From: Promethearchaeota archaeon
GTDB lineage: Archaea; Asgardarchaeota; Odinarchaeia; Odinarchaeales; JBHLKK01
Reading direction: 5' to 3'
Assembly: GCA_048939465.1 (NCBI GenBank)
Contig: JBHLPL010000022.1
Location: forward strand, 1 to 22,160
DNA length: 22,160 nucleotides
The notes under the pieces are model-generated. The model had not been told where the DNA came from and searched no databases. It saw nothing but the letters and a program-made list of their open reading frames with translations. A program made the position numbers and the translations under genes. Numbering within the stretch: position 1 is the stretch's first letter; every line of letters begins with the position of its first letter. Shown piece by piece: positions 7,711 to 22,160 of the stretch.

Positions 7711-9462
7711 ATGAAGGTTAATGATATTTCGATTTTGATCGGAGGAGAAGCTGGCGCAGGAATCACTCGTTCAGGTTATCTTTTGGCTAAAGCCTGTATC
7801 CGAGGCGGTCTCAACGTCTTTGGTGCCAATGACTACCAATCTCTCATAAGAGGCGGGCACAATTTCTACGTTCTTAACATAAAAGCTGAAGAAGTATATT
7901 CACAAGCAGGCCGTACAGATCTGCTCGTTGCACTGAACGATGAGACTATTACTCGTCATAGGGATCGAATGATTTCAGGAGGCGCAATTATCTACGACGG
8001 AGACAATGCCAACTTGAGCCCTAAAATACTGAACAGGAAGGATGTCAGGCTGTACGGAGTTCCTCTGAAAAAGATTGCCAAAGAAGAATTAGAAGGGCAA
8101 ATACTGATGAGAAATACTGTTGCCATTGGAGCTGTATTCGCTCTTGTTAACTACGATTTGGAGCTACTAGAAGGAGTCCTAAAAGACACATTTAAGCCAA
8201 AAATAGCTGAGGCAAACATAAAGGCAGCAAACAAAGGATATGATTATCTAAAAAGCAGTTTTGAGGATGATTTTGGGTATAGGCTTAGAAGAATAGAGAA
8301 GGATCCCAAACAGAAGATCTTTCCTACGGGAAACGAAGCTGTTGGGCTAGGTGCGATTAGTGCTGGATGCAAGTTTTATGTAGCTTACCCGATGACCCCC
8401 TCAACCGGAGTTCTCCATTTTATGGCAGCCAACCAAAGGAAATATGACATGCTTGTTCTGCAACCAGAGGGAGAGATTGCCGCAATGAATATGGCTGCTG
8501 GAGCAGCTTTTGCCGGCGTCAGAGCCATGACTTCAACTTCAGGTGGGGGTTTCTGCCTTATGAGTGAGGCTCTCGGGATGGCAGCTATGACAGAGACGCC
8601 CGTTGTTGTTATGGTATCCCAGAGAACCGGACCAAGCACAGGACTCCCCACTTACACTGCCCAGGGAGATCTAAGGTTTGTCATTCACGCTTCGCAAGGT
8701 GAGTTTCCAAGAGTCGTCATTGCTCCAGGAGACGCTGAGGAGTGTTACTATGAGACCATGAGAGCATTTAACTGGGCTGAAAAGTATCAGATTCCAGTCA
8801 TTCTTCTAATGGATAAATACCTTTCTGAGAGTCAGATGTCAGTTCAGCCATTCAATTCAAATGAGGTAGAGGTTGAAAGGGGCGAACTGATCACTGACGA
8901 GTATAACGGTGATGAGGAGTACAAGAGACACAGAATAACAGAGACAGGGATATCCCCAAGAGCTATTCCGCTCACCAGAGGCGCAATCGTTCGAACTAAT
9001 GCTGATGAGCACGGGGAATATGGCCTTACAACCGAGGATCCTGAGATGACGACAAAAATGATTGACAAGAGGATGAGGAAACTCACTTACTTGGCTAAAG
9101 AGCTTGAAGAAAGGGACATAAAAACGACAAAGCTGTATGGCCCAAGAGACTCTCAAGCAACAGTAATCTCTTGGGGGTCTACAAAGGGCCCGATAAGGGA
9201 AACACTGAAACTCCTAGGCAAAGAAAGAATCAATGTAGACTTCTTGCAGATTCTCTACATACTGCCGTTCCCAGCCGCAAAAGTTGATGAAATCCTCAAT
9301 CAGGCCAAGAAGACCATCGTAATCGAAAATAACAAGACCTCTCAGCTGTCGACCCTCATCAGAGAACATCTTCTCCGAGACGTAGATCATAGAATCCTGA
9401 AATATGACGGAAGACCCTTTGACCCAGATTACCTATCCCAGAAGATTAAGGAGGTTCTGTGA
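7711..9462 (+). CDS. korA: 2-oxoacid:ferredoxin oxidoreductase subunit alpha (gamma-alpha fusion)
   Basis: GGEAGAG, YQSLIRGGHN, GNEA, YPMTPST, EGEIAA, TSTSGGGF, QRTGPSTGLPT and WGSTKG motifs. Substrate specificity not assignable. Confidence 0.95.
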   Translation: MKVNDISILIGGEAGAGITRSGYLLAKACIRGGLNVFGANDYQSLIRGGHNFYVLNIKAEEVYSQAGRTDLLVALNDETITRHRDRMISGGAIIYDGDNANLSPKILNRKDVRLYGVPLKKIAKEELEGQILMRNTVAIGAVFALVNYDLELLEGVLKDTFKPKIAEANIKAANKGYDYLKSSFEDDFGYRLRRIEKDPKQKIFPTGNEAVGLGAISAGCKFYVAYPMTPSTGVLHFMAANQRKYDMLVLQPEGEIAAMNMAAGAAFAGVRAMTSTSGGGFCLMSEALGMAAMTETPVVVMVSQRTGPSTGLPTYTAQGDLRFVIHASQGEFPRVVIAPGDAEECYYETMRAFNWAEKYQIPVILLMDKYLSESQMSVQPFNSNEVEVERGELITDEYNGDEEYKRHRITETGISPRAIPLTRGAIVRTNADEHGEYGLTTEDPEMTTKMIDKRMRKLTYLAKELEERDIKTTKLYGPRDSQATVISWGSTKGPIRETLKLLGKERINVDFLQILYILPFPAAKVDEILNQAKKTIVIENNKTSQLSTLIREHLLRDVDHRILKYDGRPFDPDYLSQKIKEVL

Positions 9463-10322
9463 TGACTATTGAAGTTAAAGATCTTGAAACTCACAAGAAG
9501 AATACCTGGTGTCCGGGGTGTGGAAACTTCGGAATACTAATCGCTTTTAAGAAGGCCCTAGTAGAGATGGGTCTCGAAAGAGAAGAAGTAGTCGTCGTAT
9601 CCGGAATAGGTTGCCATGGAAAGATGGTTAACTACGTGAACGTGAACGGCTTCCACGGCATTCATGGGAGAGTAATACCTCTGGCATCGGGCATAAAACT
9701 GGCTAATCCCGAATTGACTGTAATTGGCTTTGCTGGAGATGCAGATTGCTACGATGAGGGGTGGGATCACTTCAGTCACGCTATCCGTCGAAACATAGAC
9801 ATGACGCTAATAGTTCACAACAACATGGTCCTCGGCTTAACTACCGGTCAGACAACCTCGACCAGTCAGGTAGGATTTAGAACCAAGTCTACGCCTTTTG
9901 GTTCAGTGAATCCCCCTCTGAATCCTATCGCAAACGCTCTTGTCAGCCGAGCTACTTTTGTCGCGCGTGGATTTGTGGGAGAACCGAAACATCTTCAGCG
10001 TCTGATCGTGGAGGCCGTCAAGCACAGAGGATTCAGTTACATCGACGTCTTTCAAGTCTGTGTGTCCTTCAACTATCTGAATACATATGATTGGTTCCGT
10101 CAAAGAGTTTACAAGCTTGAGGACGAAGGTCATGATTGTACCGATAGACAAAAAGCGTTGGAAAAGAGCTTTGAATGGGGAAATCGAATTCCAATTGGCA
10201 TCTTCTATAAAGAAGAAAAACCCACATACCGCGACCATCTTGTACACTTACAAGACAGACCGCTTACGAGACTACCGATAAAAAACGTAGATATTACTCC
10301 CCTACTCGATGAAATGAAGTAA
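9462..10322 (+). CDS. korB: 2-oxoacid:ferredoxin oxidoreductase subunit beta
   Basis: WCPGCGNFG, SGIGCHG, HGIHGR, TPP-binding GDAD...HNN, GLTTGQTTST, QVC; TGATG overlap with korA. Confidence 0.95.
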   Translation: MTIEVKDLETHKKNTWCPGCGNFGILIAFKKALVEMGLEREEVVVVSGIGCHGKMVNYVNVNGFHGIHGRVIPLASGIKLANPELTVIGFAGDADCYDEGWDHFSHAIRRNIDMTLIVHNNMVLGLTTGQTTSTSQVGFRTKSTPFGSVNPPLNPIANALVSRATFVARGFVGEPKHLQRLIVEAVKHRGFSYIDVFQVCVSFNYLNTYDWFRQRVYKLEDEGHDCTDRQKALEKSFEWGNRIPIGIFYKEEKPTYRDHLVHLQDRPLTRLPIKNVDITPLLDEMK

Positions 10323-10334
10323 GAACAATCATCC

Positions 10335-10348
10335 ACTCTTCTTTTTGC
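10335..10348 (+). terminator. Pyrimidine/oligo-T tract after korB
   Basis: ACTCTTCTTTTTG about 13 nt after the korB stop, between convergent genes; typical archaeal terminator. Confidence 0.45.
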
Positions 10349-10381
10349 TGGGTACCAGATATCAAGTTAGCTAACTCAATC

Positions 10382-11755
10382 TTACTCCTCTTTTAAGGGA
10401 TAGCCTAGGCTTTTCCACGCCTTGATGCCACCGAGAACATTGTAAACCTCTTTGAACCCTAGACTCTTCAGGATACTAGCTCCCAGGCCTCCCCTTCCGC
10501 CCCACCCGCACGTAGTTGCGATAGGTTTTTCATGAGCTATACGGTTGGCCTTCTCAATCAGATGTCCTACGTATATCATCCTAGCTCCATCAATGTGTTC
10601 CTTCTTCCACTCGTGACTATCTCTAACATCAACCAATGTGATCTCATTATTGTCCAATCTCTCTTTTAATTGCGGGGCAGACAGTATACCCAAATGATCT
10701 ATAGGCTTTCCAGCATTTCTCCATTCTTTGATACCAGGGCAGAGATAGCCTATGATGTTGTCAAAGCCGAGCCTACAGAGATAACTCTTCGCTATTTCAA
10801 CATCTTCTTCTCGCTCAGTTACCAGCAGAATTCTCTCATCGTAGGTTATCACCCACCCTGGGAAGTAGCTCATCCCGTCAAGCCAAATATTCAGGGAGGA
10901 AGGTATGTGAGAGCCAGCAAAGCTCTCAGGCTGTCTTGTGTCAATCATGACTGAGTGAGGCCGCTTAATCTCTATTTCAAACTCATCAACGCTTAATGAT
11001 CGGACTGCGGGAGCTTCGTTCAAAAGCGCAGCTCCTTCCAGGTTGTATTGCTCCATTTTGCTGAAATAGGGCGGTCTTAACATTTCCTGTGCGGTCAGAT
11101 GATGCACAAATTCCTCCTTACTTGAGTGCAATAAAGGATTGGTCTTAAGCTCATAGCCTATTGTGCTGAACTCCCTGTCACTAATGTCGCGGCCACAAAT
11201 GCTGCCCGCACCATGGCCCGGATAAACCATAACGTGATCGCCCAAGGGTAGAACTTTACTATGAAGGCTCTCATAGAGCTTCTCGGATTGGTCTTGCCAT
11301 ACATCGATTCCCAGGAGATCCGTCCTTCCAACATCTCCGGCAAACAGTGTATCCCCCGTGAATACAGCTATGGGATCTTTGGTCTTTGTAGATTCAAAAA
11401 CAAGATAGCAAATACTGTCGTTGGTGTGTCCCGGGGTGCCCAAAGCTTCTATTCTTAAGTTACCGATGTCAAAGATGTCACCATCGCTGATCCTGTGTTC
11501 TCCATACTTAAAGGATGTTTCTTTGCTATGGGCAATTTCGGCTCCTGTGGTGTTCTGCAATTCAAGTGAGCCTATTACATAATCCTCGTTTCGATGAGTC
11601 TCAAATATGTACTTGATCTTGGCACATTCCCGCCTCGAGAGTTCCACATAGATTGAACAGTCCCGTCGCGGGTCAACCACCAAGGCCTCTCCCCCATCGG
11701 AGAGGAAGTAGCTGTTGTGTGCAAGCCCCCTTGACTTTATGATCTCGATCTGCAT
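10382..11755 (-). CDS. MBL-fold hydrolase with two rhodanese domains (persulfide dioxygenase/CstB-like architecture)
   Basis: ETHRNEDY, TPGHT, FTGDTLF, YPGHGAGS.CG; rhodanese 1 IDTR..ESF..SHIP; rhodanese 2 VDVRD..EW...HIDGA with active-site CGWGGRG. Confidence 0.88.
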   Translation of the reverse strand: MQIEIIKSRGLAHNSYFLSDGGEALVVDPRRDCSIYVELSRRECAKIKYIFETHRNEDYVIGSLELQNTTGAEIAHSKETSFKYGEHRISDGDIFDIGNLRIEALGTPGHTNDSICYLVFESTKTKDPIAVFTGDTLFAGDVGRTDLLGIDVWQDQSEKLYESLHSKVLPLGDHVMVYPGHGAGSICGRDISDREFSTIGYELKTNPLLHSSKEEFVHHLTAQEMLRPPYFSKMEQYNLEGAALLNEAPAVRSLSVDEFEIEIKRPHSVMIDTRQPESFAGSHIPSSLNIWLDGMSYFPGWVITYDERILLVTEREEDVEIAKSYLCRLGFDNIIGYLCPGIKEWRNAGKPIDHLGILSAPQLKERLDNNEITLVDVRDSHEWKKEHIDGARMIYVGHLIEKANRIAHEKPIATTCGWGGRGGLGASILKSLGFKEVYNVLGGIKAWKSLGYPLKEE

Positions 11756-12012
11756 TTATATGACACCCTTGTCAGGAATTGACTTCTGGTAGTTTTCCAG
11801 AATCGCTCTTTCTACTCTGAAGAACCCGAGCTAATTTAAAGTTCATAATATGCACATTCTTATTAATACCTTCAGGATAATACTTCCAATCTACTTGGGC
11901 ATTCCGCTCCGACGCAGTGGTCCGTGATCTCGTTCAGAGAATACTCATCCAAAAAAAGGGTTAGATGGAGAGGCATGAAATGAATCCCCGGAGGCAGTCA
12001 GAACCTACCGAA

Positions 12013-12732
12013 ATGGGTAGCAAGACTAGAGTCTTAAGGATACTTGAGCTTTTGGAGAAAGAGTACCCGGACGCCAAGACAGCTCTTCATTATTCTAACA
12101 GCTTGGAGTTACTGATCGCCACCATTCTGTCGGCTCAATGCACGGACAGAAGGGTGAACTTAGTCACAAAGAAACTCTTCAAAAAGTATAGAAGGGCAAA
12201 AGATTATGCTCAAGCTGATCTTAAGGAGCTTGAAGAAGACGTAAGACCAACCGGTTTTTATAGAAACAAGGCTAAGAACATCAAAATGTGCTGTCAGCTC
12301 CTGGTCGAAAAGTTCAATTCTAAGGTTCCGAAAACAATGAAGGAGATTCTTGAACTTCCAGGTGTCGCCAGAAAAACAGCGAATATTGTGCTATCCAACG
12401 CTTATGGTGTTATTGAAGGAATAGCAGTGGATACTCATGTTCGTAGACTTGCCAAGAGGTTGGGACTCACAAAGCATGGAGAACCAAACAAAATCGAGAG
12501 AGATTTGATGGAGGCAGTCCCCAGAGACAGATGGATGAGAATCACAGACCTCTTAATCTTTCACGGTAGAAGAATATGCAGCGCAAGGAAACCACAGTGT
12601 AAGATATGTGTTTTAAACCTGCTTTGTCCTTCTGCCTTCACATTCGACAAGGTTAAGCAAGGAACCAATTTACCTTCTTCTCCGCAAGGAGACCCCGTCC
12701 GAAAGGGTGGAGACGAATTACGAGGAGTTTAA
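12013..12732 (+). CDS. nth: Endonuclease III (Nth), with a 17-aa C-terminal extension read into an inserted element
   Basis: LLIATILSAQCTD, HhH LPGVARKTAN, AVDTHV, FeS loop C..RKPQC..C.L...C. Start inferred at MGSKT. Confidence 0.95.
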   Translation: MGSKTRVLRILELLEKEYPDAKTALHYSNSLELLIATILSAQCTDRRVNLVTKKLFKKYRRAKDYAQADLKELEEDVRPTGFYRNKAKNIKMCCQLLVEKFNSKVPKTMKEILELPGVARKTANIVLSNAYGVIEGIAVDTHVRRLAKRLGLTKHGEPNKIERDLMEAVPRDRWMRITDLLIFHGRRICSARKPQCKICVLNLLCPSAFTFDKVKQGTNLPSSPQGDPVRKGGDELRGV

Positions 12733-12893
12733 ATACTTGTTTTCCAGATAGCCTCAAGGAATTGAGCTGAGGTAACACTCGCCAATTCACAAACAAAGTT
12801 TCAGGGCAGGAACTGCCCGCAGAGCCTGTAAGACATATCCCATTGGGGAATGGATGAAACAGGAAGCTCCATCCGAAGGGTGGGGTAGTTCAC
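12680..12893 (+). mobile_element. Miniature non-autonomous IS200/IS605-family (tnpB-type) element, copy A (214 bp)
   Basis: The left end matches 18561-18615 at 43/55 nt ungapped. Related subterminal hairpins at both ends: CCCCGTCC-GAAA-GGGTGGAG and CTCCATCC-GAA-GGGTGGGG. The right end GGAAG...GGGGTAGTTCAC is typical of tnpB-element right ends. Residual TnpB-tail peptides GQELPAEPV and MKQEAPS. No tnpA or intact tnpB. In silico excision restores the nth stop codon. Confidence 0.78.
12728..12735 (+). promoter_or_regulatory. TATA box inside the left end of element A
   Basis: TTTAAATA, conserved at the same offset in copy B (18609-18615). Confidence 0.6.
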
Positions 12894-12913
12894 AAACAAT
12901 ATCACTCTCAGTT
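12757..12913 (+). ncRNA. Candidate TnpB omegaRNA (scaffold to 12893 plus about 20-nt flank-derived guide AAACAATATCACTCTCAGTT)
   Basis: Lies about 25 nt downstream of the TATA box. Dense pairing: CTCAA-GGAA-TTGAG, GAATTG/CAATTC, GGGCAG-GAA-CTGCCC, GAACTGCCC (12810-12818) with GGGTAGTTC (12883-12891), and the right-end hairpin. omegaRNAs are known to derive from the tnpB 3' end/right end. The 5' boundary is inferred. Confidence 0.5.
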
Positions 12914-12917
12914 TCAG
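12786..12917 (+). repeat. Direct repeat TTCACAAACAA...AGTTTCAG, internal versus right-end junction
   Basis: TTCACAAACAA at 12786-12796 and 12889-12899; AGTTTCAG at 12797-12804 and 12910-12917 (10 extra nt in the downstream copy). Confidence 0.8.
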
Positions 12918-12937
12918 TAAAACAGGGTGAGTAAATA

Positions 12938-13414
12938 ATGACCCAATTGCAGATCGGCCAGAAAGCACCTGATTTCACTCTAACGGACATGAATTTGAAG
13001 CAAAGGAAACTGAAAGACTTTCTCAGTAAGACCGTGGTTCTTGCGTTTTATCCCGGAGCTTTTACTTCAGTTTGCACAAAGGAGATGTGCACATTTAGAG
13101 ACTCAATGACACTGCTGAATAACTTGAACGCCCTAGTAGTAGGAATAAGTGTCAATGATCCATTTACGAATAAGGCTTTCGCTGAAGCCAACAGTTTGAA
13201 CTTCCCCTTGTTAAGCGATTACAACAGGGAAGTAGCTGAAGCTTATGGAATAGCAGATACTGATTTTGCAGGTCTGAAGGGTTACACGGTTGCAAAGCGC
13301 TCGATATTCATTATTGACGATGAAGGTACTATTCGTTATGTGTGGGTATCAGATGATCCCCGTGTAGAACCAGACTACGGAGAGATTGAAGAAATCTTGA
13401 AAAAGATTGGTTAA
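12938..13414 (+). CDS. bcp: Peroxiredoxin, BCP/PrxQ type
   Basis: APDFTL, FYPGAFTSVCTKEMC (PxxxTxxC plus CxxxxC), GISVND, FPLLSD, KRSIFIID. Confidence 0.93.
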   Translation: MTQLQIGQKAPDFTLTDMNLKQRKLKDFLSKTVVLAFYPGAFTSVCTKEMCTFRDSMTLLNNLNALVVGISVNDPFTNKAFAEANSLNFPLLSDYNREVAEAYGIADTDFAGLKGYTVAKRSIFIIDDEGTIRYVWVSDDPRVEPDYGEIEEILKKIG

Positions 13415-13555
13415 GATCAGCCTCTGCAAACTGAAGTCTTTTCCGTTTTTTTCTTGCTGCTATCAAGACCCGAGGACTGTGACATAGGGTCAGAATGTTT
13501 ATAAAACTAAAAGAAAATCCAATCCACAAAAGCTTAAGAAAGCGAGAAAAAGCAT

Positions 13556-13957
13556 ATGGAGGAGGCAGATGGTTTGAGTCCTGAAAAGGAGTTTTCGTTG
13601 GATGAGCTTAATAAACCTAAGGATTGGGAAAGCCTGCCCGATATGGCGAAGAAGCACTTACCTATCATCGAAGCACCAGGAAAAGCAAAAGCCAAAGAAC
13701 CCTTTACGGTCAAGATAAAAGTTGGCGGAATAGATGGCGTGGAACATCCAAATATGTTGGGACACTGGATCAACTGGGTTGCACTTTACGATGGGGATCG
13801 ATTAATATCTCGGATTGAATTTGGCCCAGGAATGTGTGACGGGTATGTTGTGAATATCAGCGTGGCACTGGACAAGACTGCAAAACTTAGGGCGCAGGAG
13901 TTCTGCAACCTACATGGCGTATGGGAAGGAAAAGAAAAGAAGGTCATAATCGAATAG
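13556..13957 (+). CDS. sor: 1Fe superoxide reductase (neelaredoxin type)
   Basis: KHLP, EHPN...HWINW, FCNLHGVW iron ligands; no N-terminal desulforedoxin domain. Confidence 0.9.
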   Translation: MEEADGLSPEKEFSLDELNKPKDWESLPDMAKKHLPIIEAPGKAKAKEPFTVKIKVGGIDGVEHPNMLGHWINWVALYDGDRLISRIEFGPGMCDGYVVNISVALDKTAKLRAQEFCNLHGVWEGKEKKVIIE

Positions 13958-14034
13958 AATCTCGTCATCCGCTGAAGCCGAGGGCTTATGCTAGCTAGGC
14001 ATTGAAAAGAAAACGCGTTTTTTGAGGGAAGGCT

Positions 14035-14547
14035 ATGAGTAAAGTATTGATCTTGATTGATGAAGGGTTCGAGGACTCCGAATTCCTGTATCCCTATTAT
14101 CGGTTTCAGGAAGAAGATTACGAGGTAGATGTTGTGGGTTCAGAAGCCAATCAGATCTACACAGGAAAGCGAGGCGTGCCGATGAAGTCGAACCTTTCGC
14201 CGGATCGTGTAAAAATAGAGGACTACGATGCAGTAATAATACCTGGAGGAAGGGCACCAGATCGAATGCGTTTGAACAAGGCCCTGGTCAGAATTGTCAA
14301 AATGGCTCATGAGAAGGGTAAGGTAATTGCAGCAATATGTCATGGTGCCCAAATGTTGATAGAAGCGGATATCGTGCGTGGAAAGAAGGCAACATGCTGG
14401 TATTCCGTGGCAACGGACCTCAAGAATGCTGGAGCTACATATATCGATGCACCGGTTGTGGTTGATGGGAACTTTGTGACTTCACGCTTCCCTGCAGACC
14501 TACCGAGGTTCTGTCAAGAGACAATAAAGTTGCTGAAAAAGCGATGA
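14035..14547 (+). CDS. pfpI: PfpI/DJ-1 family protein (type 1 glutamine amidotransferase-like)
   Basis: FEDSE, DAVIIPGG.APD.MR, AAICHG, VVVDGNFVTSR.P.DL. Confidence 0.92.
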   Translation: MSKVLILIDEGFEDSEFLYPYYRFQEEDYEVDVVGSEANQIYTGKRGVPMKSNLSPDRVKIEDYDAVIIPGGRAPDRMRLNKALVRIVKMAHEKGKVIAAICHGAQMLIEADIVRGKKATCWYSVATDLKNAGATYIDAPVVVDGNFVTSRFPADLPRFCQETIKLLKKR

Positions 14548-14559
14548 TTCTGCAATTAA

Positions 14560-14582
14560 CTGAACTTTCCTCTTCTTTTTTG
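14560..14582 (+). terminator. Oligo-T terminator after pfpI
   Basis: CTGAACTTTCCTCTTCTTTTTT directly after the stop; a similar tract follows the prx stop (13431-13452). Confidence 0.55.
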
Positions 14583-14781
14583 GGTTTTCTGATTAATGGC
14601 AGGAAGGACCCCTTGCTTCAAGCCAGAAAGTGAAAATCTTCCAACCCTCGATTTGATAATTGCGCCAAAAAAAGAAAGATATTCTGGGACTCCGGTGCGG
14701 TGGTAGTAGGCAAAACAGCTGACTCAGGCTGACAAGAGTGGAAAGCCTTCCGAAGATTCTGTGCCCCTCCAAAGGTGGCGT

Positions 14782-15165
14782 CTATTTCTTCCAGAGTCTA
14801 TGTATATTGCAGTATTCTCTTGCCTTTATCTCTTCGTATTTGCCTGCTTTGAACTCAGCCTCTGGTTTTTGTCCCGGCTTTAACCAAACTCGCTGTACAT
14901 CCCCGTCTGTAATGAGCTCTACGAACTCTATATAGTGCTTTTCCTCCATTGGATGTGGTACACTTCCGACTTTGACCTTAATTACATCTCCAGATTTCTC
15001 GATTACCGGAACATGTTTCTCGTATCCTTTTTCTTCAGTCTGTTCTGCAAGAAGTTCCATCGGCTGCCCGCAACAAACGAGTGTTCCTATTCCAGAATGT
15101 AGCACTTCGACGATATTTCCACAAATGTTGCATCTATAGATTTGTCTCACTGCAGTTTTAGTCAT
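14782..15165 (-). CDS. dfx: Desulfoferrodoxin (2Fe superoxide reductase)
   Basis: [12 protein letters not shown]...LVCCGQPM (desulforedoxin domain), [19 protein letters not shown]. Confidence 0.95.
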
Positions 15166-15183
15166 TCATTCACCCTCCTTTTT

Positions 15184-16365
15184 TCATTTTTTTACAGTCT
15201 CTCCAAGGTTACGCCCCAATCCTCTCAATCTGTCAAGATCGTTCTCATCAGGCACATACCTAACTCTCACACCCTCATACGGTATCTCCCAGCCTAATCC
15301 CCTAAAGATTTCCTCGATCTCATTAACTACCTTTCCTCCCCAGCCATAAGATCCAAAGGCAAAACCGATGCGTTTTCGTGGCCTCAGCCCTTTAAGGTAG
15401 GTTAAGAAAGCACTGACCTTTGGAAATATTCCGTTGTTTAGTGTAGGGGAGCCGACTAAGATGGCCCTAGAGAATAACACGTCAGTCATGACATCCGATA
15501 TATCTGTGGTCTTCAGGCACCTCACGACAACCGGAATTCCAGACTCCTCCAGCCCTTCTCCTAAAGCGTATGCCATTTTTTCTGTTGATCCCCACATTGT
15601 ATCATAGACAATTACTGCCCTCTTCTCGCTCTCAAATGCTGCCCATTTCGTGTAAGCCTCCATTATCTTAGACAAATATGATCTCCAGATTAACCCGTGA
15701 CTTGGGGCTACCATTTCTATGTCTAACGTGGAAAGAGCATCCAAAGCTTTTCTTACTTGGTCCCCGTAAGGAAGAACGATATTTCCGTAATACTTGGCTG
15801 CCTCCTCATGAAGAATATCCCATCCTAACTCATCATCAAAACGCTCAGATGATGCAATATGTTGTCCGAAGGCGTCATTTGGCAGAAGCAGCTTCTCCTC
15901 GGGTATATAGGTTGCCATTGAGTCGGGCCAGTGAACCATCGGGGTAAGGTAAAACTGAAGAGTCCTCTTTCCAATCTTTATTGAATCTCCAGTCTTGACG
16001 ACCCAGAAATTCCAGTCCTTTTTGAAATGATAACGGAGGCCATTCTCACCCTGGGGTGATACAATTACTTTGGCTTGGGGTACTAACTCCAGAATTCTGG
16101 GAAGAGAGCCGGAATGGTCCATTTCTACGTGGTTTGTAACAACGTAATCTATGGTTGAAGGATCGATGAGTTTCTTGATACGAGACAGCATCTCATCAAA
16201 AAGGTAGTGCTTCACCGTGTCTACAAGAACTTTCTTTTCATCCAGAATCAAGTACGCATTGTAGGTGCTGCCGCGCGGAGTAACGTATCCATGAAAACTC
16301 CTCAAATTCCAGTCAATACCCCCTACCCAATGAATATCCGGTTTAACCTGAACAGGATTTGCCAT
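15184..16365 (-). CDS. fprA: Flavodiiron protein (O2/NO reductase)
   Basis: GSTYNAY, NHVEMDHSG, HWPDSM, NDAFGQH, APSHG; flavodoxin domain YDTMWGSTEKMA...GSPTLN...FGSYGW. Confidence 0.95.
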   Translation of the reverse strand: MANPVQVKPDIHWVGGIDWNLRSFHGYVTPRGSTYNAYLILDEKKVLVDTVKHYLFDEMLSRIKKLIDPSTIDYVVTNHVEMDHSGSLPRILELVPQAKVIVSPQGENGLRYHFKKDWNFWVVKTGDSIKIGKRTLQFYLTPMVHWPDSMATYIPEEKLLLPNDAFGQHIASSERFDDELGWDILHEEAAKYYGNIVLPYGDQVRKALDALSTLDIEMVAPSHGLIWRSYLSKIMEAYTKWAAFESEKRAVIVYDTMWGSTEKMAYALGEGLEESGIPVVVRCLKTTDISDVMTDVLFSRAILVGSPTLNNGIFPKVSAFLTYLKGLRPRKRIGFAFGSYGWGGKVVNEIEEIFRGLGWEIPYEGVRVRYVPDENDLDRLRGLGRNLGETVKK

Positions 16366-16541
16366 TACTCTTCGACCTTTTCAAACTCTTCTTTACTTGC
16401 CCCACACTCTGGACATACCCAGTCATCCGGCAACTTCTCAAATGGAGTTCCTGGTGGTATGTCGGCATCGGGATCTCCCTTTGCAGGGTCATAAACATAG
16501 CCACAAACAATACATTGGTATTTTGCCATTTTCTCTGACAT
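16365..16541 (-). CDS. rub: Rubredoxin (58 aa; not in the ORF track)
   Basis: Manual translation [58 protein letters not shown]; CxxC...CxxC; SD GGAGGTGG upstream; TAATG overlap with fprA. Confidence 0.97.
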
Positions 16542-16713
16542 CTTTCGAAACCACCTCCTCTAAAGTGGCATGAATTTATCCCTATCATTTGGACTTTATT
16601 TAAGCTTATCTTACGGATATTTTGAACCGTTTCTTACAGGACTATTCTGGATCTGGCTGTAAACCTACCGTTATTGTCAGGATGCCAATTCTTTTTCCTT
16701 TGAATCCTGTACC

Positions 16714-17163
16714 CTACTCGATTTGTTTCAAAAAGATCTTATATTGCTCTTCGTGGTGCTTTTCTGCCTTAGCAATCGCTCTGAATCTTCGGGCAACCTC
16801 CGGAAAGCCTTCCCTTTCGGCAACTTCGGCAAACTCAGGGTACATTTTTGTGTTTTCATAATTTTCACCGTTAATTGCAGCCTTGAGATTCTGTTTCGTG
16901 CCACCGAGTATTAACGGGGCTTCAACCTTAATCTGGATTACGTTTACGTCATCCTTTGTTGCTTTCTTCACATCATTTATCATTCTGAATAATGCTTTTG
17001 CGTGAGACCTCTCATGTTTTGCGGTCTTAAGGAATCTCTCCGCAACATGCTCGTATCCTTCTGAGTCTGCGACTTCAGCGTATACCGCATATCTGTTTCT
17101 TGCTTGGCTTTCTCCAATGAATGCCTTCACCAGATTCTTAATTGTCTCAGTTTTGTTTGACAT
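16714..17163 (-). CDS. rbr: Rubrerythrin di-iron domain lacking the C-terminal rubredoxin-like domain
   Basis: [50 protein letters not shown]; stops at TAG before the usual CxxC domain. Start inferred at MSNKT. Confidence 0.88.
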
Positions 17164-17185
17164 TCTATATCGCCTTGACTTGCAT

Positions 17186-17239
17186 TTCGGTTCGAATAAT
17201 AGCATTTTGTGGGAAAGGTTTTTAAATGTTTGGTTCGAA
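17186..17239. promoter_or_regulatory. Divergent rbr/lrp promoter: shared TATA flanked by two TTCG-N3-CGAA-like operators
   Basis: TTCGGTTCGAA (17186-17196) and TTTGGTTCGAA (17229-17239) flank TTTTTAAAT (about 17219-17227), which reads as a TATA box on both strands. Confidence 0.55.
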
Positions 17240-17248
17240 ATTAGTACC

Positions 17249-17665
17249 ATGGATGACAGAGACATAATGATAGTGGACACACTGTTGGAGAATGCACGGA
17301 TCCCTAGGGTCAAGATCGCTCAGAAGCTTCACATAAGTGAAGCTGCAGTCCGTAAGAGGATAGCAAGACTAGAGAAAGAGGGAGCTATCTTTGGCTACAG
17401 AGCTATTGTGGACCAAAAGAAAATCGGTTATTTGACTTCTCTCACTGGTGTTGATGTTGCTCCTGAGCATCTGTGGAGAGCCGTTGACAAGCTCAAGAAA
17501 AAGAAGGAAATCAAGTCTATCTTTCTGTCCAGCGGAGATCATACGATAATGATTGAAATCTGGGGCAAGACCGCAGAAGAGCTTGCCAAGATCCACAAAG
17601 ACCTTGAAAGAATTGAGGGAATAGAAAGGATATGTCCCGCCATCATAACTGAAAGGATAAGGTAA
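17249..17665 (+). CDS. lrpA: Lrp/AsnC-family regulator, LrpA/Ptr2-like
   Basis: MDDRD..I...L.ENAR....[20 protein letters not shown]; C-terminal [32 protein letters not shown], recalled as characteristic of Pyrococcus LrpA and Methanocaldococcus Ptr2. Confidence 0.88.
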
Positions 17666-17722
17666 TCGGAAACCTACCTCCGAAGCTGTGCCTCTCCCCG
17701 GGGAAGGGTTGTGAGCAGAGTT

Positions 17723-18025
17723 CTATTTTGTCTCAAAAAACCTTTTGACAGCCTTTATGAAATCGTCTAAGTCATCGACGAAAACTGGAATGCCCATGAA
17801 ACTCAGGAATATTCCAGTGTCCTCAATTCGCTGATCTAGATTGAGTCTTGACAATACAGCGCCAGCAATCATCATAAGCAGCCCGGCCGGATAGTGGTGT
17901 ATTCTCATGCCACCTACGTATATTTTAGGCTTCTTGGGGATGCTATTCCATATTTCGGTCAAAGCAGTACCTGTGAGTAGCCCAAGAATGGCCATCCTTC
18001 TCTTTTTGTTTTCATTCTTACTCAT
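17723..18025 (-). CDS. Small hypothetical membrane protein
   Basis: 100 aa, two to three hydrophobic segments, G.RIHHY..G motif and DDLDD tail. Confidence 0.6.
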   Translation of the reverse strand: MSKNENKKRRMAILGLLTGTALTEIWNSIPKKPKIYVGGMRIHHYPAGLLMMIAGAVLSRLNLDQRIEDTGIFLSFMGIPVFVDDLDDFIKAVKRFFETK

Positions 18026-18066
18026 ACGGATTTATCCTTCATGTTTTCAGCTGCATGAAGATCTGT

Positions 18067-18510
18067 CTATCCACATTTAAAGAACAACCAGGATTTTTCT
18101 TCCTTCTTAAATCTGATTAAGCAATACCTTCCTTTGAGTCTTTTCCCTTCTATGTGAACTATGATCTCGTCCTCTTTCCATTTCTCGGGACGATATCTTC
18201 CGCTGTCCCAAGTCTCCACAGTTCCAGATCCGTATTCGCCCTTAGGTATGATTCCCTGGAAGGACGCATAGTCTATTGGGTGATCTTCTGTCTGTACTGC
18301 CAGTCTCTTGATTCCTTTTACAGTTGGGGGTTCCTTTGGCACTGCCCAGCTCTTCAAAACGCCTTCTCTTTCAAGCCTTAAGTCGTAATGAAGACGTGTA
18401 GCGTCGTGCTTCTGTATGACATAAATATGCCCACTACTCTTTCTCAGCTCCCCTTTGGGCTCCTTGGTCTTCCCAAAATTCCTTTTCTTCCAATACTCTT
18501 CCAAGCTCAT
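18067..18510 (-). CDS. Stand-alone LigD-type DNA 3'-phosphoesterase (PE) domain protein
   Basis: [62 protein letters not shown]. Confidence 0.92.
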
Positions 18511-18919: not shown

Positions 18920-19121
18920 TGGTCAAGCTGTCTTCGTATAAAAATCCTTGCTCTTCTGTTTCGGCCAGTGTAGACCAAGGAGCTTGGCAAGGATCGGTGC
19001 TCCAACCAGTTTGCCAAAAAGGATAGATATTTATAATTTTGATGCCGAAAATATATACGTAGAGTAAAGAAAATTGAGGAATTCCCAATCATCTAAAAGG
19101 GCCATTGAGAGGAATTATACG

Positions 19122-22100
19122 TTGAAGATTCCGATTAGAAAATTAACATTTGTGTTTCTCATTTCACTGGTTGTTATGCTGGGCCAGTTCGTAGTTTTCT
19201 CAGAGTCTGCGACTCAACCCCCTCCCCAAAAATGGTCAGATCTGTATCTTCCACAGTACCCGGAAGTCAATGAAACCCTTGCATATAGCTCTTCTCTTCA
19301 CGAGGCTGGATTCCCCGTAGTTATGTATGACTTAAGTGGTGACGGAGTTCCAGAGATCTTATTTGGCTCCGATGACGGTGAATTCTATGTTTGGAATGCC
19401 AGTAACAACAACTATGCTCCAATCTGGAACGACAACATTGCATCATTAAATCCAACTGTGGCCAGTAAGTATGAGATATTCTCAGTAGCAGTGGGTGACA
19501 TGGATACGAACACTTCTTCCTTGGAGATTTTGGTCGGCACAGTCAACTATATTACTGTCCTAACCTGGAATGGCACAAGTTGCGTATATAATCGGACCGT
19601 ACAGTTGGCTGTCGGAGGAAGTGATATGATAGTGTCGAGTTTAATTGTGGAAGACATAGATAATGACTCCTATAATGAAATAATCGCAGCTATTGGAAGA
19701 AAAACGAACTATGCTGACAATGTTACATCTCATTCTGGAAAGATGTTTGTCTGGAAGGCAACCGATTTTCGGGACAATCCTGGTGACTGGAAACAAATCG
19801 ACGCCACGGATCTTAATAGGATTAAAACAAATTGGTATACCAACAGGGGATGCTATTCTCTGATTACGGGCGATCCCGATAACGATAATAAGACTGAGAT
19901 CATAGCGCATCTGGAATACTTGGGGGTTGGATGCACGGTCATTATAAATTCATCCACATACATTGATGAGTCGATTATTTCAGCTCCAGAAGGAAGGGGA
20001 TATGGACTGGCATGCGGCGATATTGACAATGACGGAGATAACGAATTGGCGATTGGAGACGGAGACGGAACCGTTTATATTATGTCTGGGGCTGGCAGCT
20101 CCTATTCCACTTCTAAGCCCATATTGATTCCAGGGGCCTCGTTGGTCTGGGGTCTAAAGATTGCCGATTCAGATAATGACACGCGTAATGAACTTATCGC
20201 CACGACGCTCCAAGGAGATCTCAGGATATTTCAGTGGGATAGTAGTTTCAACGAGCTTAAAGAAGAAGATACGAGTATCGAGTGGATTGGTGCGCAAGTT
20301 GGAGCTTTCAATTTCATTTGTGTGGGAGATCCAGATAACGATAGCTGGACCGAGCTTGCGTTGGGAAAAGCTGGACCGAATTCAGGCTTTGGTGTTTCCG
20401 ACTATGATTCAAAAGGGCATTTGCACGTCTTCGGTTATATTCCGACCTGGGCTAACGTGACAGCCCCGCCGCCATCCACGATTCAAGCGGCAACCCCCAT
20501 TATATTCAACGCACAGTATAACCGAACTGATTCTTCGGAGGGAATACCAGGCCTCCAACAAGTTGTTGGTATAGACAATGACACCCAGACACTGTGGGAA
20601 GGAGGATCACCCAGCTTCATAGATGAAGGTTCAGGAAACTATACTATCGAACTCCCCACGACTGGAGTGGAACCGGGATATCATGCCGTTAGAGTTATTC
20701 TGTTTGAGGTGGAATTTGAGCCTGGCGAGGTCTTTGTGAATTTCACTGTTTCGGGAGCAGATACAAACGTAACAGTACTCTGGGGGGCGGCAAATCTATC
20801 TGGATACTGGGAAACATACGGTGCCTTTAGCCCGTATGTTAACAGCACAGACAAGGGAATCGCGATTTTTTACTCTTATAATTCATCAGGAACACCAACT
20901 GGAATAATCGGCGCAAGGGGTCGAGCCTCACTGCTCGACCTTAATGGAACCATGATAGGGGGCAAAGAGCAACTGCCGTGGTATGACTTATTCGAATTAT
21001 ATGGAGGTAATGTCTCATACAGGGGAATCTACTATATTCAGCTAGATACTTACGGCCTGCACGTAGCAGATTTTAATTTGACCATTACTGTATGGAAGGA
21101 GAAATACAATCCCGCTGAACTATGGGTTATCGTTCACGTTGAACCTATTCCATCTAGCCTTGTAGCTGTTGGTGAGGAGATATCTATCTACGAAGGCGGG
21201 GATTTTGAAGTATCCGTATTCTTCAGGGACGATTACCATCTTAAGGATGTGAGTAACGGAGCTGTATCTCTCACAATAACAAATGGTACTTGGAACTGGG
21301 GCAACTATGTTTATCTCAGCTACGAGACATTCGGTCTATACAAGAGTGAAGAAATAAAACTGGAAGACATAGGTATCACCTCCGGAACCTATAGTATCAT
21401 CATAAATGGTAGTGCCCCTGACTACGAAGATTGTCAAACCAGCCTTCCCTTTGCGGTCAATCTGAAGGCAAATGTTGTACTGATTCTTTCTCAGCTTCCG
21501 TCCGAAATCATGGCCGGAGAATCACTGCCTGTAGAAGCAACACTGACTTTCGAAAACGGAACGGCCGTTATAAACCAGGACGTGAAATTCACATACACAT
21601 ATGATGGTCTGCCGCACGACGGTCCAACTGTAGTCACAGATGAAAATGGAAAGGCAAGCATAACGATTACTCCACCTGCGGGAACTACAAGAGTCGAAAT
21701 CAGCGTAAGATACGACGGCTCGGAAGAGACAAACCCGATTACGAGCGTAGCTTCTACTGCTGCTGGAGGAACTTTTGTACGGATTGTTACGATCTGGGAC
21801 AGAATGATAGAAATGCTGCCTTTTGCAGGAATCGGTGCAGCGGTGGTTGGAGGTTCGGCATTTTCATTTCATCGATTTGTAAGAGTACCCAAGAGAAGAC
21901 GCAAACTTGAAGAATTGAATAGGATAGCTGAGACTTTCGACAACTTCGAAAATCTGAGGCACATAATAGTCTTGGAAAAGAATAGTGGTTTGACTATCTA
22001 TGATCAATCATTTACAGGTACAAACCTTGACCCGTCTCTAGTAAGCGGATTTATCCAAGCGATTTCCTCATTTGGAGCTGAGCTTACCAAGAAGGCTGAT

Positions 22101-22160
22101 GGAAAGCTCAGAGAGTTAACCTATGAGGGTTTCCGACTGCTGTTAGACGAAGGTGACTAT
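19122..22160 (+). CDS. Large cell-surface protein, partial (runs off the window): signal peptide, 7 FG-GAP/VCBS-like repeats, about 4 Ig-like domains, TM helix, cytoplasmic longin-like domain
   Basis: Stop-free frame of 1013 codons from TTG 19122 (SD GAGAGG; upstream in-frame TAA at 19065). Signal peptide MKIPIRKLTFVFLISLVVMLGQFVVFSESA. Seven D-x-[DS]-x-[DN]-x-x-x-E loops. About 25 N-x-S/T sequons by manual count. TM at about 21813-21869 then HRFVRVPKRRRK. Tail LRHIIVLEKNSGLTIYDQSF...LDPSLVSGFIQAISSFGAEL...LRELTYEGFRLLLDEG. Confidence 0.9.
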   Translation, partial: MKIPIRKLTFVFLISLVVMLGQFVVFSESATQPPPQKWSDLYLPQYPEVNETLAYSSSLHEAGFPVVMYDLSGDGVPEILFGSDDGEFYVWNASNNNYAPIWNDNIASLNPTVASKYEIFSVAVGDMDTNTSSLEILVGTVNYITVLTWNGTSCVYNRTVQLAVGGSDMIVSSLIVEDIDNDSYNEIIAAIGRKTNYADNVTSHSGKMFVWKATDFRDNPGDWKQIDATDLNRIKTNWYTNRGCYSLITGDPDNDNKTEIIAHLEYLGVGCTVIINSSTYIDESIISAPEGRGYGLACGDIDNDGDNELAIGDGDGTVYIMSGAGSSYSTSKPILIPGASLVWGLKIADSDNDTRNELIATTLQGDLRIFQWDSSFNELKEEDTSIEWIGAQVGAFNFICVGDPDNDSWTELALGKAGPNSGFGVSDYDSKGHLHVFGYIPTWANVTAPPPSTIQAATPIIFNAQYNRTDSSEGIPGLQQVVGIDNDTQTLWEGGSPSFIDEGSGNYTIELPTTGVEPGYHAVRVILFEVEFEPGEVFVNFTVSGADTNVTVLWGAANLSGYWETYGAFSPYVNSTDKGIAIFYSYNSSGTPTGIIGARGRASLLDLNGTMIGGKEQLPWYDLFELYGGNVSYRGIYYIQLDTYGLHVADFNLTITVWKEKYNPAELWVIVHVEPIPSSLVAVGEEISIYEGGDFEVSVFFRDDYHLKDVSNGAVSLTITNGTWNWGNYVYLSYETFGLYKSEEIKLEDIGITSGTYSIIINGSAPDYEDCQTSLPFAVNLKANVVLILSQLPSEIMAGESLPVEATLTFENGTAVINQDVKFTYTYDGLPHDGPTVVTDENGKASITITPPAGTTRVEISVRYDGSEETNPITSVASTAAGGTFVRIVTIWDRMIEMLPFAGIGAAVVGGSAFSFHRFVRVPKRRRKLEELNRIAETFDNFENLRHIIVLEKNSGLTIYDQSFTGTNLDPSLVSGFIQAISSFGAELTKKADGKLRELTYEGFRLLLDEGDY

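Follow-up and report, generated by a model that had tools for sequence, protein, structure and literature searches.

Is the protein encoded at the end of an Asgard archaeal contig, with its integrin-like order of domains, related to integrin alpha chains, and what could the folded tail that follows its transmembrane helix do inside the cell? The DNA in question is a stretch of 22,160 nucleotides (hereafter, the window) from a Promethearchaeota archaeon of the order Odinarchaeales (GenBank assembly GCA_048939465.1, contig JBHLPL010000022.1), and the gene runs on its forward strand from position 19122 to the last base. The product consists of a signal peptide, a beta-propeller, four beta-sandwich domains, a transmembrane helix, a polybasic stretch, a longin domain and a helical end domain of about 75 residues, a layout that is apparent from the sequence, the Pfam matches and a structural model. 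In a large Asgard family that mounts variable ectodomains on the same chassis of stalk, transmembrane helix, longin domain and end domain, it represents one variant of the head, specific to its lineage.

Architecture of the protein and identity of its tail

The features of the gene in the window are the following, all on the forward strand.

19122..22160, forward: receptor coding sequence, cut at its 3' side by the contig end; 1013 codons present, ~115-130 missing
19122..19211, forward: signal peptide or N-terminal anchor, as read from the sequence (basic n-region KIPIRK, hydrophobic run, then SES-A)
19257..20465, forward: seven-bladed FG-GAP beta-propeller head (Pfam matches and 28 model strands)
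19329..20354, forward: span of the seven acidic loops D-x-[DN]-x-[DNST]-x2-3-E, one per blade
19329-19355, 19497-19526, 19653-19679, 19872-19898, 20019-20045, 20166-20192 and 20328-20354, forward: the individual acidic loops
20478..21797, forward: stalk of four beta-sandwich (Ig-like) domains (orthologue residues 452-890; predicted local distance difference test, pLDDT, 82-93)
21528-21740, forward: last stalk domain, Big_1-like (Big_1 E = 2.8e-6, under the Pfam cut-off)
21813..21869, forward: single transmembrane helix (hydrophobic 19-mer, within the long helix 912-942 of the orthologue model)
21882..21956, forward: polybasic stop-transfer and juxtamembrane helix (RVPKRRRK at 21882-21905)
21957..22160, forward: start of the longin module, 68 of its ~125 residues (strands 1-2 and 3-4 with helix 1 between them), with the remainder past the contig end

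The reading frame is open from position 19074 to the last base of the window, without a stop, in a listing of open reading frames (ORFs) that allows open ends (the translation from 19074 comprises 1029 residues). Because the window is an entire contig (G000:C39), of a 1.96 Mb genome in 152 contigs that is 91% complete, the missing end is an artefact of the assembly and not the mark of a pseudogene. The absence of a stop had already been pointed out in the first-pass annotation of this DNA, made from the letters alone, and the protein is completed by two full-length orthologues, P0003 (1143 amino acids, aa; 73% identity to the window protein over 1015 residues) and P0004 (1158 aa; from a metagenome-assembled genome, MAG, labelled Candidatus Hodarchaeota), from the lengths of which it follows that the last ~115-130 residues are absent from the window. 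A search for the missing 3' end on the other contigs of the genome yielded paralogues only. The likely start is the TTG codon at 19122, with GAGAGGA 9 nt upstream of it; the database gene call (P0002, 1013 aa) begins at this codon, and the orthologue's Met aligns with it. The in-frame TTG at 19074 is kept as a possible alternative start because the second orthologue begins further upstream. The closest named relative of the host is a 'Hodarchaeota' MAG, the only one that a single-protein contig scan returned.

Since the window copy is truncated, the full-length AlphaFold model is that of the 73%-identical orthologue, obtained with a composite 55-row alignment (mean pLDDT 78.4; ectodomain mostly 80-93), and the propeller coordinates in the window were mapped from the orthologue through a pairwise alignment. 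The model contains both the seven-bladed propeller and the longin fold, the two elements on which the initial reading of the sequence depended. In the head, Pfam identifies FG-GAP_3 (E = 1.2e-16, in 6 stretches) and FG-GAP (E = 5e-6), as well as BBS2_Mid and Beta-prop_CGLA, and residues 46-447 of the orthologue form 28 strands, that is, 7 blades of 4 (pLDDT mostly 80-91), in agreement with the earlier description of a Ca-binding-type FG-GAP propeller with exactly seven acidic loops. Each of these loops occurs once (at residues 86, 142, 194, 267, 316, 365 and 419 of the translation from 19074), at a spacing of 49-73 residues, connects two strands within one blade of the model and is kept in the orthologue according to the alignment. 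An extra match to a loose form of the loop pattern, at residue 389, belongs to a surface loop modelled with low confidence and does not represent a further blade.

The "about four" Ig-like sandwiches of the first-pass annotation are exactly four in the model, and the last of them, in addition to Big_1, weakly matches Invasin_D3 and MG4 in Pfam. The single transmembrane helix and the polybasic stop-transfer were also placed correctly; in the orthologue model, the juxtamembrane helix is continuous with the transmembrane segment and leads directly into the longin module, whereas at the opposite end of the protein, an N-terminal helix that corresponds to the signal peptide or anchor region is followed by a low-confidence linker. 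The ectodomain contains 26 N-x-S/T sequons compared with 8.7 +/- 2.6 in shuffled sequences, and the cytoplasmic part of the window protein contains none. This split fits a glycosylated, outward-facing head and provides independent support for the predicted topology, that of a type I, N-glycosylated surface protein.

The tail module is, as modelled, a longin domain, because the fold searches and a bridge through paralogues to the Pfam longin families agree. The part of the module in the window matches a profile of 60 module sequences at E = 1.7e-21. The hairpin IIVLEK / GLTIYDQSF corresponds to strands 1-2, and LVSGFIQAISSFGAEL to helix 1, of the modelled domain, which has the topology beta-beta-alpha-beta-beta-beta-alpha-alpha (assigned with DSSP both in a stand-alone model and in residues 943-1066 of the full-length model, each of the orthologue; in the latter, the region has pLDDT 83-92 except for one loop). 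In a Foldseek search against PDB, zeta-COP (E = 1.9e-5), the AP sigma subunits and Sec22b lead, with template modelling (TM) scores of 0.58-0.68 (0.65-0.68 for AP sigma and Sec22b). Among the reviewed AlphaFold models of Swiss-Prot, Sec22 (TM score 0.69-0.71), AP sigma and SR-alpha (0.70) span the whole module. The longin pattern that had been noticed in the tail is thus supported by the fold model, the structure searches and, as described next, Pfam matches of paralogues.

Pfam searches with the 60 family modules give three that touch Fuz_longin_1; others touch Clat_adaptor_s, Sybindin and Intu_longin_1. Two further paralogue modules from this genome, neither of them included in the profile, are detected by it at E = 5e-24 and 9e-16 and pass curated Pfam cut-offs, one of them for Fuz_longin_1 (27.1 vs 26.1 bits), in a protein in which the module is fused to an Arf-like GTPase (L012), and the other for Clat_adaptor_s (22.7 vs 22.5 bits). 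The module profile found no significant match among the PDB sequences, where AP-4 sigma (E = 0.6) and MON1 (E = 0.83) are suggestive at most. A word-seeded homologue search with the tail only returned one fragment, and the ESM Atlas returned only Asgard clusters without names, at scores below 0.9. An NPRL2-like longin, an idea taken from the preprint of Liu et al., was also considered and rejected, there being no NPR2/NPR3 Pfam match among the 60 module members.

Roadblock and longin folds are related (PMC10933270), and roadblock, LAMTOR and MglB chains do follow the longins in the PDB search (TM score 0.42-0.54, E = 1e-4 to 8e-4), so that a roadblock/MglB-type tail has to be weighed. We regard it as highly improbable. 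The module matches solved longin domains over its full length and better (TM scores of 0.58-0.71 for longins), whereas the roadblock alignments end at about residues 104-108, those of the reviewed LAMTOR2/3 models stopping near residue 105, and no roadblock is among the top 50 by VIA. Furthermore, the module has no helix before strand 1, given that it begins at residues 1-9 in free paralogues, and has the extra C-terminal helices that are typical of longins.

What the first-pass annotation missed is that the tail does not end with the longin domain: in the orthologues, the module is followed, beyond the end of the window, by a conserved domain of ~75 residues, modelled as three helices and a short strand. 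This end domain is kept across the chassis family, with 45% mean column identity. No sequence family was found for it in the Pfam and PDB profile searches, and the Pfam matches of individual members are scattered and chance-like; the order of the modelled elements resembles that of a winged helix, which is the sole basis for describing the domain as winged-helix-like.

Integrin-like layout and the Asgard chassis family

A Foldseek search with the full model ranks integrin alphaV, alphaIIb, alpha5, alphaX and alphaM first (E = 5e-18 to 1e-13, over ~1,000 collinear columns), and the protein resembles integrin alpha chains in its seven-bladed FG-GAP propeller with Ca-type loops, its string of beta-sandwiches, its one transmembrane helix and its basic juxtamembrane stretch. 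A true integrin alpha homologue that inherited this architecture and forms a heterodimer with a beta-like subunit would account for these matches, but several lines of evidence make such an origin very unlikely. At 9-12% identity and TM scores of 0.22-0.27, the integrin matches are closely followed, at nearly equal scores, by ROS1, plexin, SorCS2 and complement C5, and the collinear alignment to the integrin legs is a likeness of layout only. None of the integrin leg families (thigh, calf-1 and calf-2) is among the Pfam matches at E <= 1; there are four sandwiches in place of these three, with a Big_1-like domain next to the membrane. The juxtamembrane GFFKR motif is absent, the sequence after the transmembrane helix being HRFVRVPKRRRK, and what follows is not a short tail but ~225 folded residues. 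Integrin_beta (PF00362) has no match in the 91%-complete genome, a weak argument in that the control genomes have none either.

The propeller itself points in the same direction. A seven-bladed FG-GAP propeller with Ca-type loops is not diagnostic of integrin alpha because many prokaryotic proteins share it. Integrins as a rule carry acidic loops in the last three or four blades only, whereas here they are present in all seven, as in the prokaryotic FG-GAP/VCBS propellers. Beyond its own orthogroup, the head is closest in sequence to FG-GAP proteins from metagenomes and bacteria, with 24-32% identity. Prokaryotic surface proteins with FG-GAP/VCBS propellers, and integrin-type propellers in bacteria, are already on record (PMC3192720; PMC8023676).

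The distribution of its parts also bears on how the protein arose. In BLASTP searches, the stalk, the transmembrane helix and the whole tail (~residues 500-1142) show 25-33% identity to dozens of Asgard proteins with differing heads, the named members of this chassis family coming from Hodarchaeota, Odinarchaeia and Lokiarchaeota MAGs. The module is found in 148 of the 151 sampled genomes of the phylum, from ~5 to at least 29 copies in each. Among the same 151 genomes, the FG-GAP head is confined to this genus, apart from a 175-aa fragment in one genome of the same order; the whole architecture is also present, at 40-41% identity, in an Odinarchaeia-labelled protein and in a JGI protein (~1135 aa). 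The chassis is therefore widespread under other heads and the head is narrowly distributed, which identifies the gene as one head variant of the chassis and indicates domain shuffling within the Asgards. The likeness to integrins is thus most likely the result of independent, convergent domain assembly, a reading that guards against over-interpretation of this protein with respect to the origin of integrins. Accordingly, the integrin-alpha domain order described in the first-pass annotation stands as a description of layout, for which integrins are the best solved-structure match, and falls as a statement of ancestry.

An exhaustive search with the module profile found 8,367 representative clusters at E <= 0.001, 2,516 of them at E <= 1e-10. 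We counted architectures in the 149 best family representatives. An ectodomain of more than 200 aa with one transmembrane helix ~50 residues ahead of the module is present in 47 of the 149, several transmembrane helices with the module in 30, tandem modules without a transmembrane helix in 13, and a short N-terminus followed by a transmembrane helix and the module in 8; another 50 are soluble or other module proteins. The combination of extracellular domains with a cytoplasmic longin domain, which had been singled out as the outstanding property of the gene, accordingly does not set it apart: the chassis occurs under other heads in dozens of Asgard proteins, and nearly a third of the representatives (47/149) have a similar layout.

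Several proteins with the module have compositions of their own. P0026 (2171 aa, from a Logan assembly) contains three tandem longin modules ~500 residues apart and no predicted transmembrane helix, and several of its relatives have two copies. Proteins of ~720-760 aa with 10-13 transmembrane helices, a winged-helix-like segment and a C-terminal longin module are encoded in nearly every sampled Asgard genome (for example, L004:1498-3291, reverse strand); Pfam finds nothing in such proteins.

Other receptor genes of the same kind are present in the genome of the window. One, with a second FG-GAP head (586 aa; 45-51% identity to the orthologues), continues past the start of contig C55 (G000:C55:2-1759, reverse strand), and a 5'-cut ORF with stalk, transmembrane helix, longin and end domain starts contig C142 (G000:C142:1-2040, forward strand; locus L002). 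The two ORFs overlap by ~108 residues on the reference and are near-identical but not identical there, so the pair consists of either recent paralogues or variants from different strains. Each of the genome's three genes for such receptors lies at a contig break.

Possible functions of the anchored longin module

Altogether, 11 ORFs in the genome carry the module: the gene described here, the receptor paralogue on C142, a protein with 12-13 transmembrane helices, two fusions to Arf-like GTPases (on contigs C31 and C138), a fusion to a KaiC-type ATPase and five soluble proteins. The longin-Arf-like fusions are L012 (G000:C138:81431-82318; 296 aa) and L007:925-1899 (reverse strand; 325 aa). The ATPase fusion, L011 (G000:C10:20909-22405; 499 aa), combines a KaiC-type ATPase domain (PF06745, E = 4.7e-35) with a longin module at residues 273-397; we found no description of such a protein. 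In addition, ~18 small-GTPase genes in the genome match the Arf model.

We propose that the propeller would bind an external ligand or surface, such as a glycan, a matrix or a partner cell, and that the membrane-held longin would be half of a platform that recruits or regulates one of the ~18 small Arf/Rag-like GTPases. The anchored longin could perhaps be paired with a soluble longin paralogue; eukaryotic longin pairings of that kind include Mon1-Ccz1, Fuzzy-Inturned, TRAPP Bet5-Trs23 and SR-alpha/SR-beta. A homodimer prediction for two copies of the module, with the 60-row alignment, scored 0.35 (mark, 0.42; controls, 0.00) and counts neither way.

Whether this surface receptor does employ its longin tail as a GTPase platform is, in our assessment, an evenly balanced question. 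The case draws on the fold class and on the paralogue fusions: the fold is nearest to the first longin domains of Fuzzy and Mon1, which bind GTPases, and two of the 11 module-bearing ORFs of the genome are direct fusions with an Arf-like GTPase. In published work, dimers of longin and roadblock domains are regarded as GTPase platforms (PMC10933270).

A number of observations weigh against such a platform, or against the class assignment on which it builds. In the three orthologous contexts, none of the conserved neighbours is a GTPase, roadblock or longin gene, so the coupling to GTPases has to rest on fold class and paralogue fusions, and nothing in the neighbourhood points to a partner of the kind that the first-pass annotation had suggested looking for. 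In both close relatives, the genes on either side lie on the opposite strand, and the neighbours of the Odinarchaeia homologue differ. Identity between the tail module and the GTPase-fused modules reaches only 22-26%, and such fusions make up only one of the 149 family representatives. Many longin domains, including those of SNAREs and of the sigma and mu subunits of adaptors, do not regulate GTPases. On the side of the class assignment, neither the tail nor its module nor the end domain matches a Pfam family at E <= 10 in this protein and its orthologue, the stand-alone model of the module reaches only moderate confidence (pLDDT 68.6), and in the composite alignment, MAFFT set the ends of seven FG-GAP fragment rows against tail columns.

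The same lack of a conserved GTPase neighbour speaks for an alternative in which the longin tail and end domain would be a structural or sorting device without a GTPase role, one that dimerises or clusters the protein, anchors it to a scaffold or the cytoskeleton, or serves as a recognition tag, as longins do in SNAREs and adaptor subunits; the protein would then simply be an adhesin or an envelope component. The best structural match of the module is a SNARE longin (Sec22b), adaptor subunits rank high as well, and neither group regulates GTPases; proteins as different as the 12-13-helix membrane proteins and the KaiC-type ATPase carry this same module; and Asgard cells have many complex surface proteins and no ordered surface layer (S-layer) (PMC9834061). 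This explanation carries real but lesser weight, given the direct module-Arf-like-GTPase fusions in the same genome and the sequence affinities of the paralogue modules, whose nearest families comprise the first longin domains of Rab exchange factors (Fuzzy/Mon1/HPS1); moreover, a mere structural anchor would not need a domain that is conserved throughout the phylum.

The end domain suggests yet another possibility, namely, that signalling proceeds through a three-helix, winged-helix-like domain at the C-terminus and not through a GTPase, with the protein acting as a tethered nucleic-acid binder or as a regulator released by proteolysis. The domain's conservation across the chassis family and its modelled resemblance to a winged helix are compatible with this scenario, winged-helix-like segments go along with the module in soluble paralogues, and part of the members of look-alike clusters in the Atlas carry TrmB or HTH_47 matches, a lead only. 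In two close relatives, a gene for an HtpX-like membrane metalloprotease (Peptidase_M48) lies directly downstream of the receptor gene in convergent orientation (L008:13503-14246 and L009:3968-4567, both on the reverse strand), and such a gene is probably also located just past the end of this window. Nevertheless, we consider this route doubtful: the end domain matches no sequence family in Pfam or PDB, its assignment to the winged-helix class comes from the order of elements in a model, and the Peptidase_M48 gene is absent from the context of the Odinarchaeia homologue.

As for the remaining neighbours, a LigD_N-like gene lies upstream of the receptor gene in the close relatives, and a GPN-loop GTPase gene is found ~2.6 kb away, not co-oriented in an operon. 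The region 7711-18510 of the window is syntenic with L008:1-9782 (a contig of a Hodarchaeota MAG) up to the receptor gene and forms an oxidative-stress block of genes for pyruvate:ferredoxin oxidoreductase subunits, an MBL-rhodanese protein, Nth, peroxiredoxin, PfpI, desulfoferrodoxin, flavodiiron protein, rubredoxin and rubrerythrin, together with the LigD_N-like gene.

Returning to the platform, its generalisation would be a large Asgard family of single-pass receptors, the anchored longin tails of which recruit or switch Arf/Rag-like GTPases without lipid anchors, so that events at the cell surface are converted into GTPase signalling. We put this forward tentatively, as an extension that may well not hold for the family as a whole. 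If it did, the receptor-platform-GTPase logic seen in Ragulator-Rag, in SR-alpha/beta and in the tri-longin Rab exchange factors would have a prokaryotic forerunner in this family, of which the FG-GAP-headed protein would be the adhesion-type member, coupling adhesion to partner cells, or ligands, to GTPase signalling at the plasma membrane. Asgard genomes encode dozens of small GTPases along with longin and roadblock domains, and most of these GTPases have no obvious lipid anchors. A membrane-anchored longin is a concrete candidate for where some of them could act and for what could control them, and would link them to the S-layer-free, protein-studded Asgard surface that is thought to mediate syntrophic contacts.

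Comparison with known systems

The domains themselves, the Asgard longins and the longin-GTPase fusions are already known. Longin-domain proteins of Asgards were described by Klinger et al. (2016), as cited in PMC4917890, and longin-GTPase fusions in Asgards were reported by Tran et al. (PMC10933270) and Liu et al. (bioRxiv 10.1101/2020.10.19.343400). The protein described here shares with these published longins the domain class, the phylum and the many copies per genome, and the longin-Arf-like GTPase fusion recurs among its paralogues; a solved Lokiarchaeota longin (8yqg) belongs to the same domain class in the same phylum. The published forms are soluble, GTPase-fused, TRAPPC3-fused or fused to two-component proteins, whereas we found no published account of a large surface ectodomain and transmembrane helix fused to a longin tail, in a literature search that covered sources other than Klinger et al. 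2016 itself. Four points are new: the variant with an FG-GAP head, the conservation of a chassis on which the heads are exchanged, the link by sequence to the Pfam longin families and the finding that the locus has no conserved partner gene.

The prokaryotic surface proteins with FG-GAP/VCBS propellers belong, by Pfam, to the same superfamily as the head of this protein, and its nearest non-orthologous relatives include a Bacteroidota protein sorted by the type IX secretion system (T9SS). These relatives lack the transmembrane helix and the longin tail and, according to Pfam, end in T9SS sorting, PKD and other secretion-related domains.

On the cytoplasmic side, the tri-longin Rab exchange factors (Fuzzy-Inturned/CPLANE, Mon1-Ccz1 and HPS1-HPS4) are among the closest counterparts, their first longin domains (Pfam Fuz_longin_1, PF19036) being the nearest to the paralogue modules; by contrast, the module of the present protein remains below any Pfam model, is a single longin instead of three and is part of a transmembrane surface protein. 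The receptor of the signal recognition particle (SRP), in which the longin-like SRX domain of SR-alpha is bound to the membrane-anchored Arf-like GTPase SR-beta, offers a parallel in the arrangement of the parts, with the anchor on the other partner: there, the GTPase is anchored and the longin is soluble, whereas here it is the longin that is anchored, with no sequence relationship between the two and no SRP-type domains after the longin.

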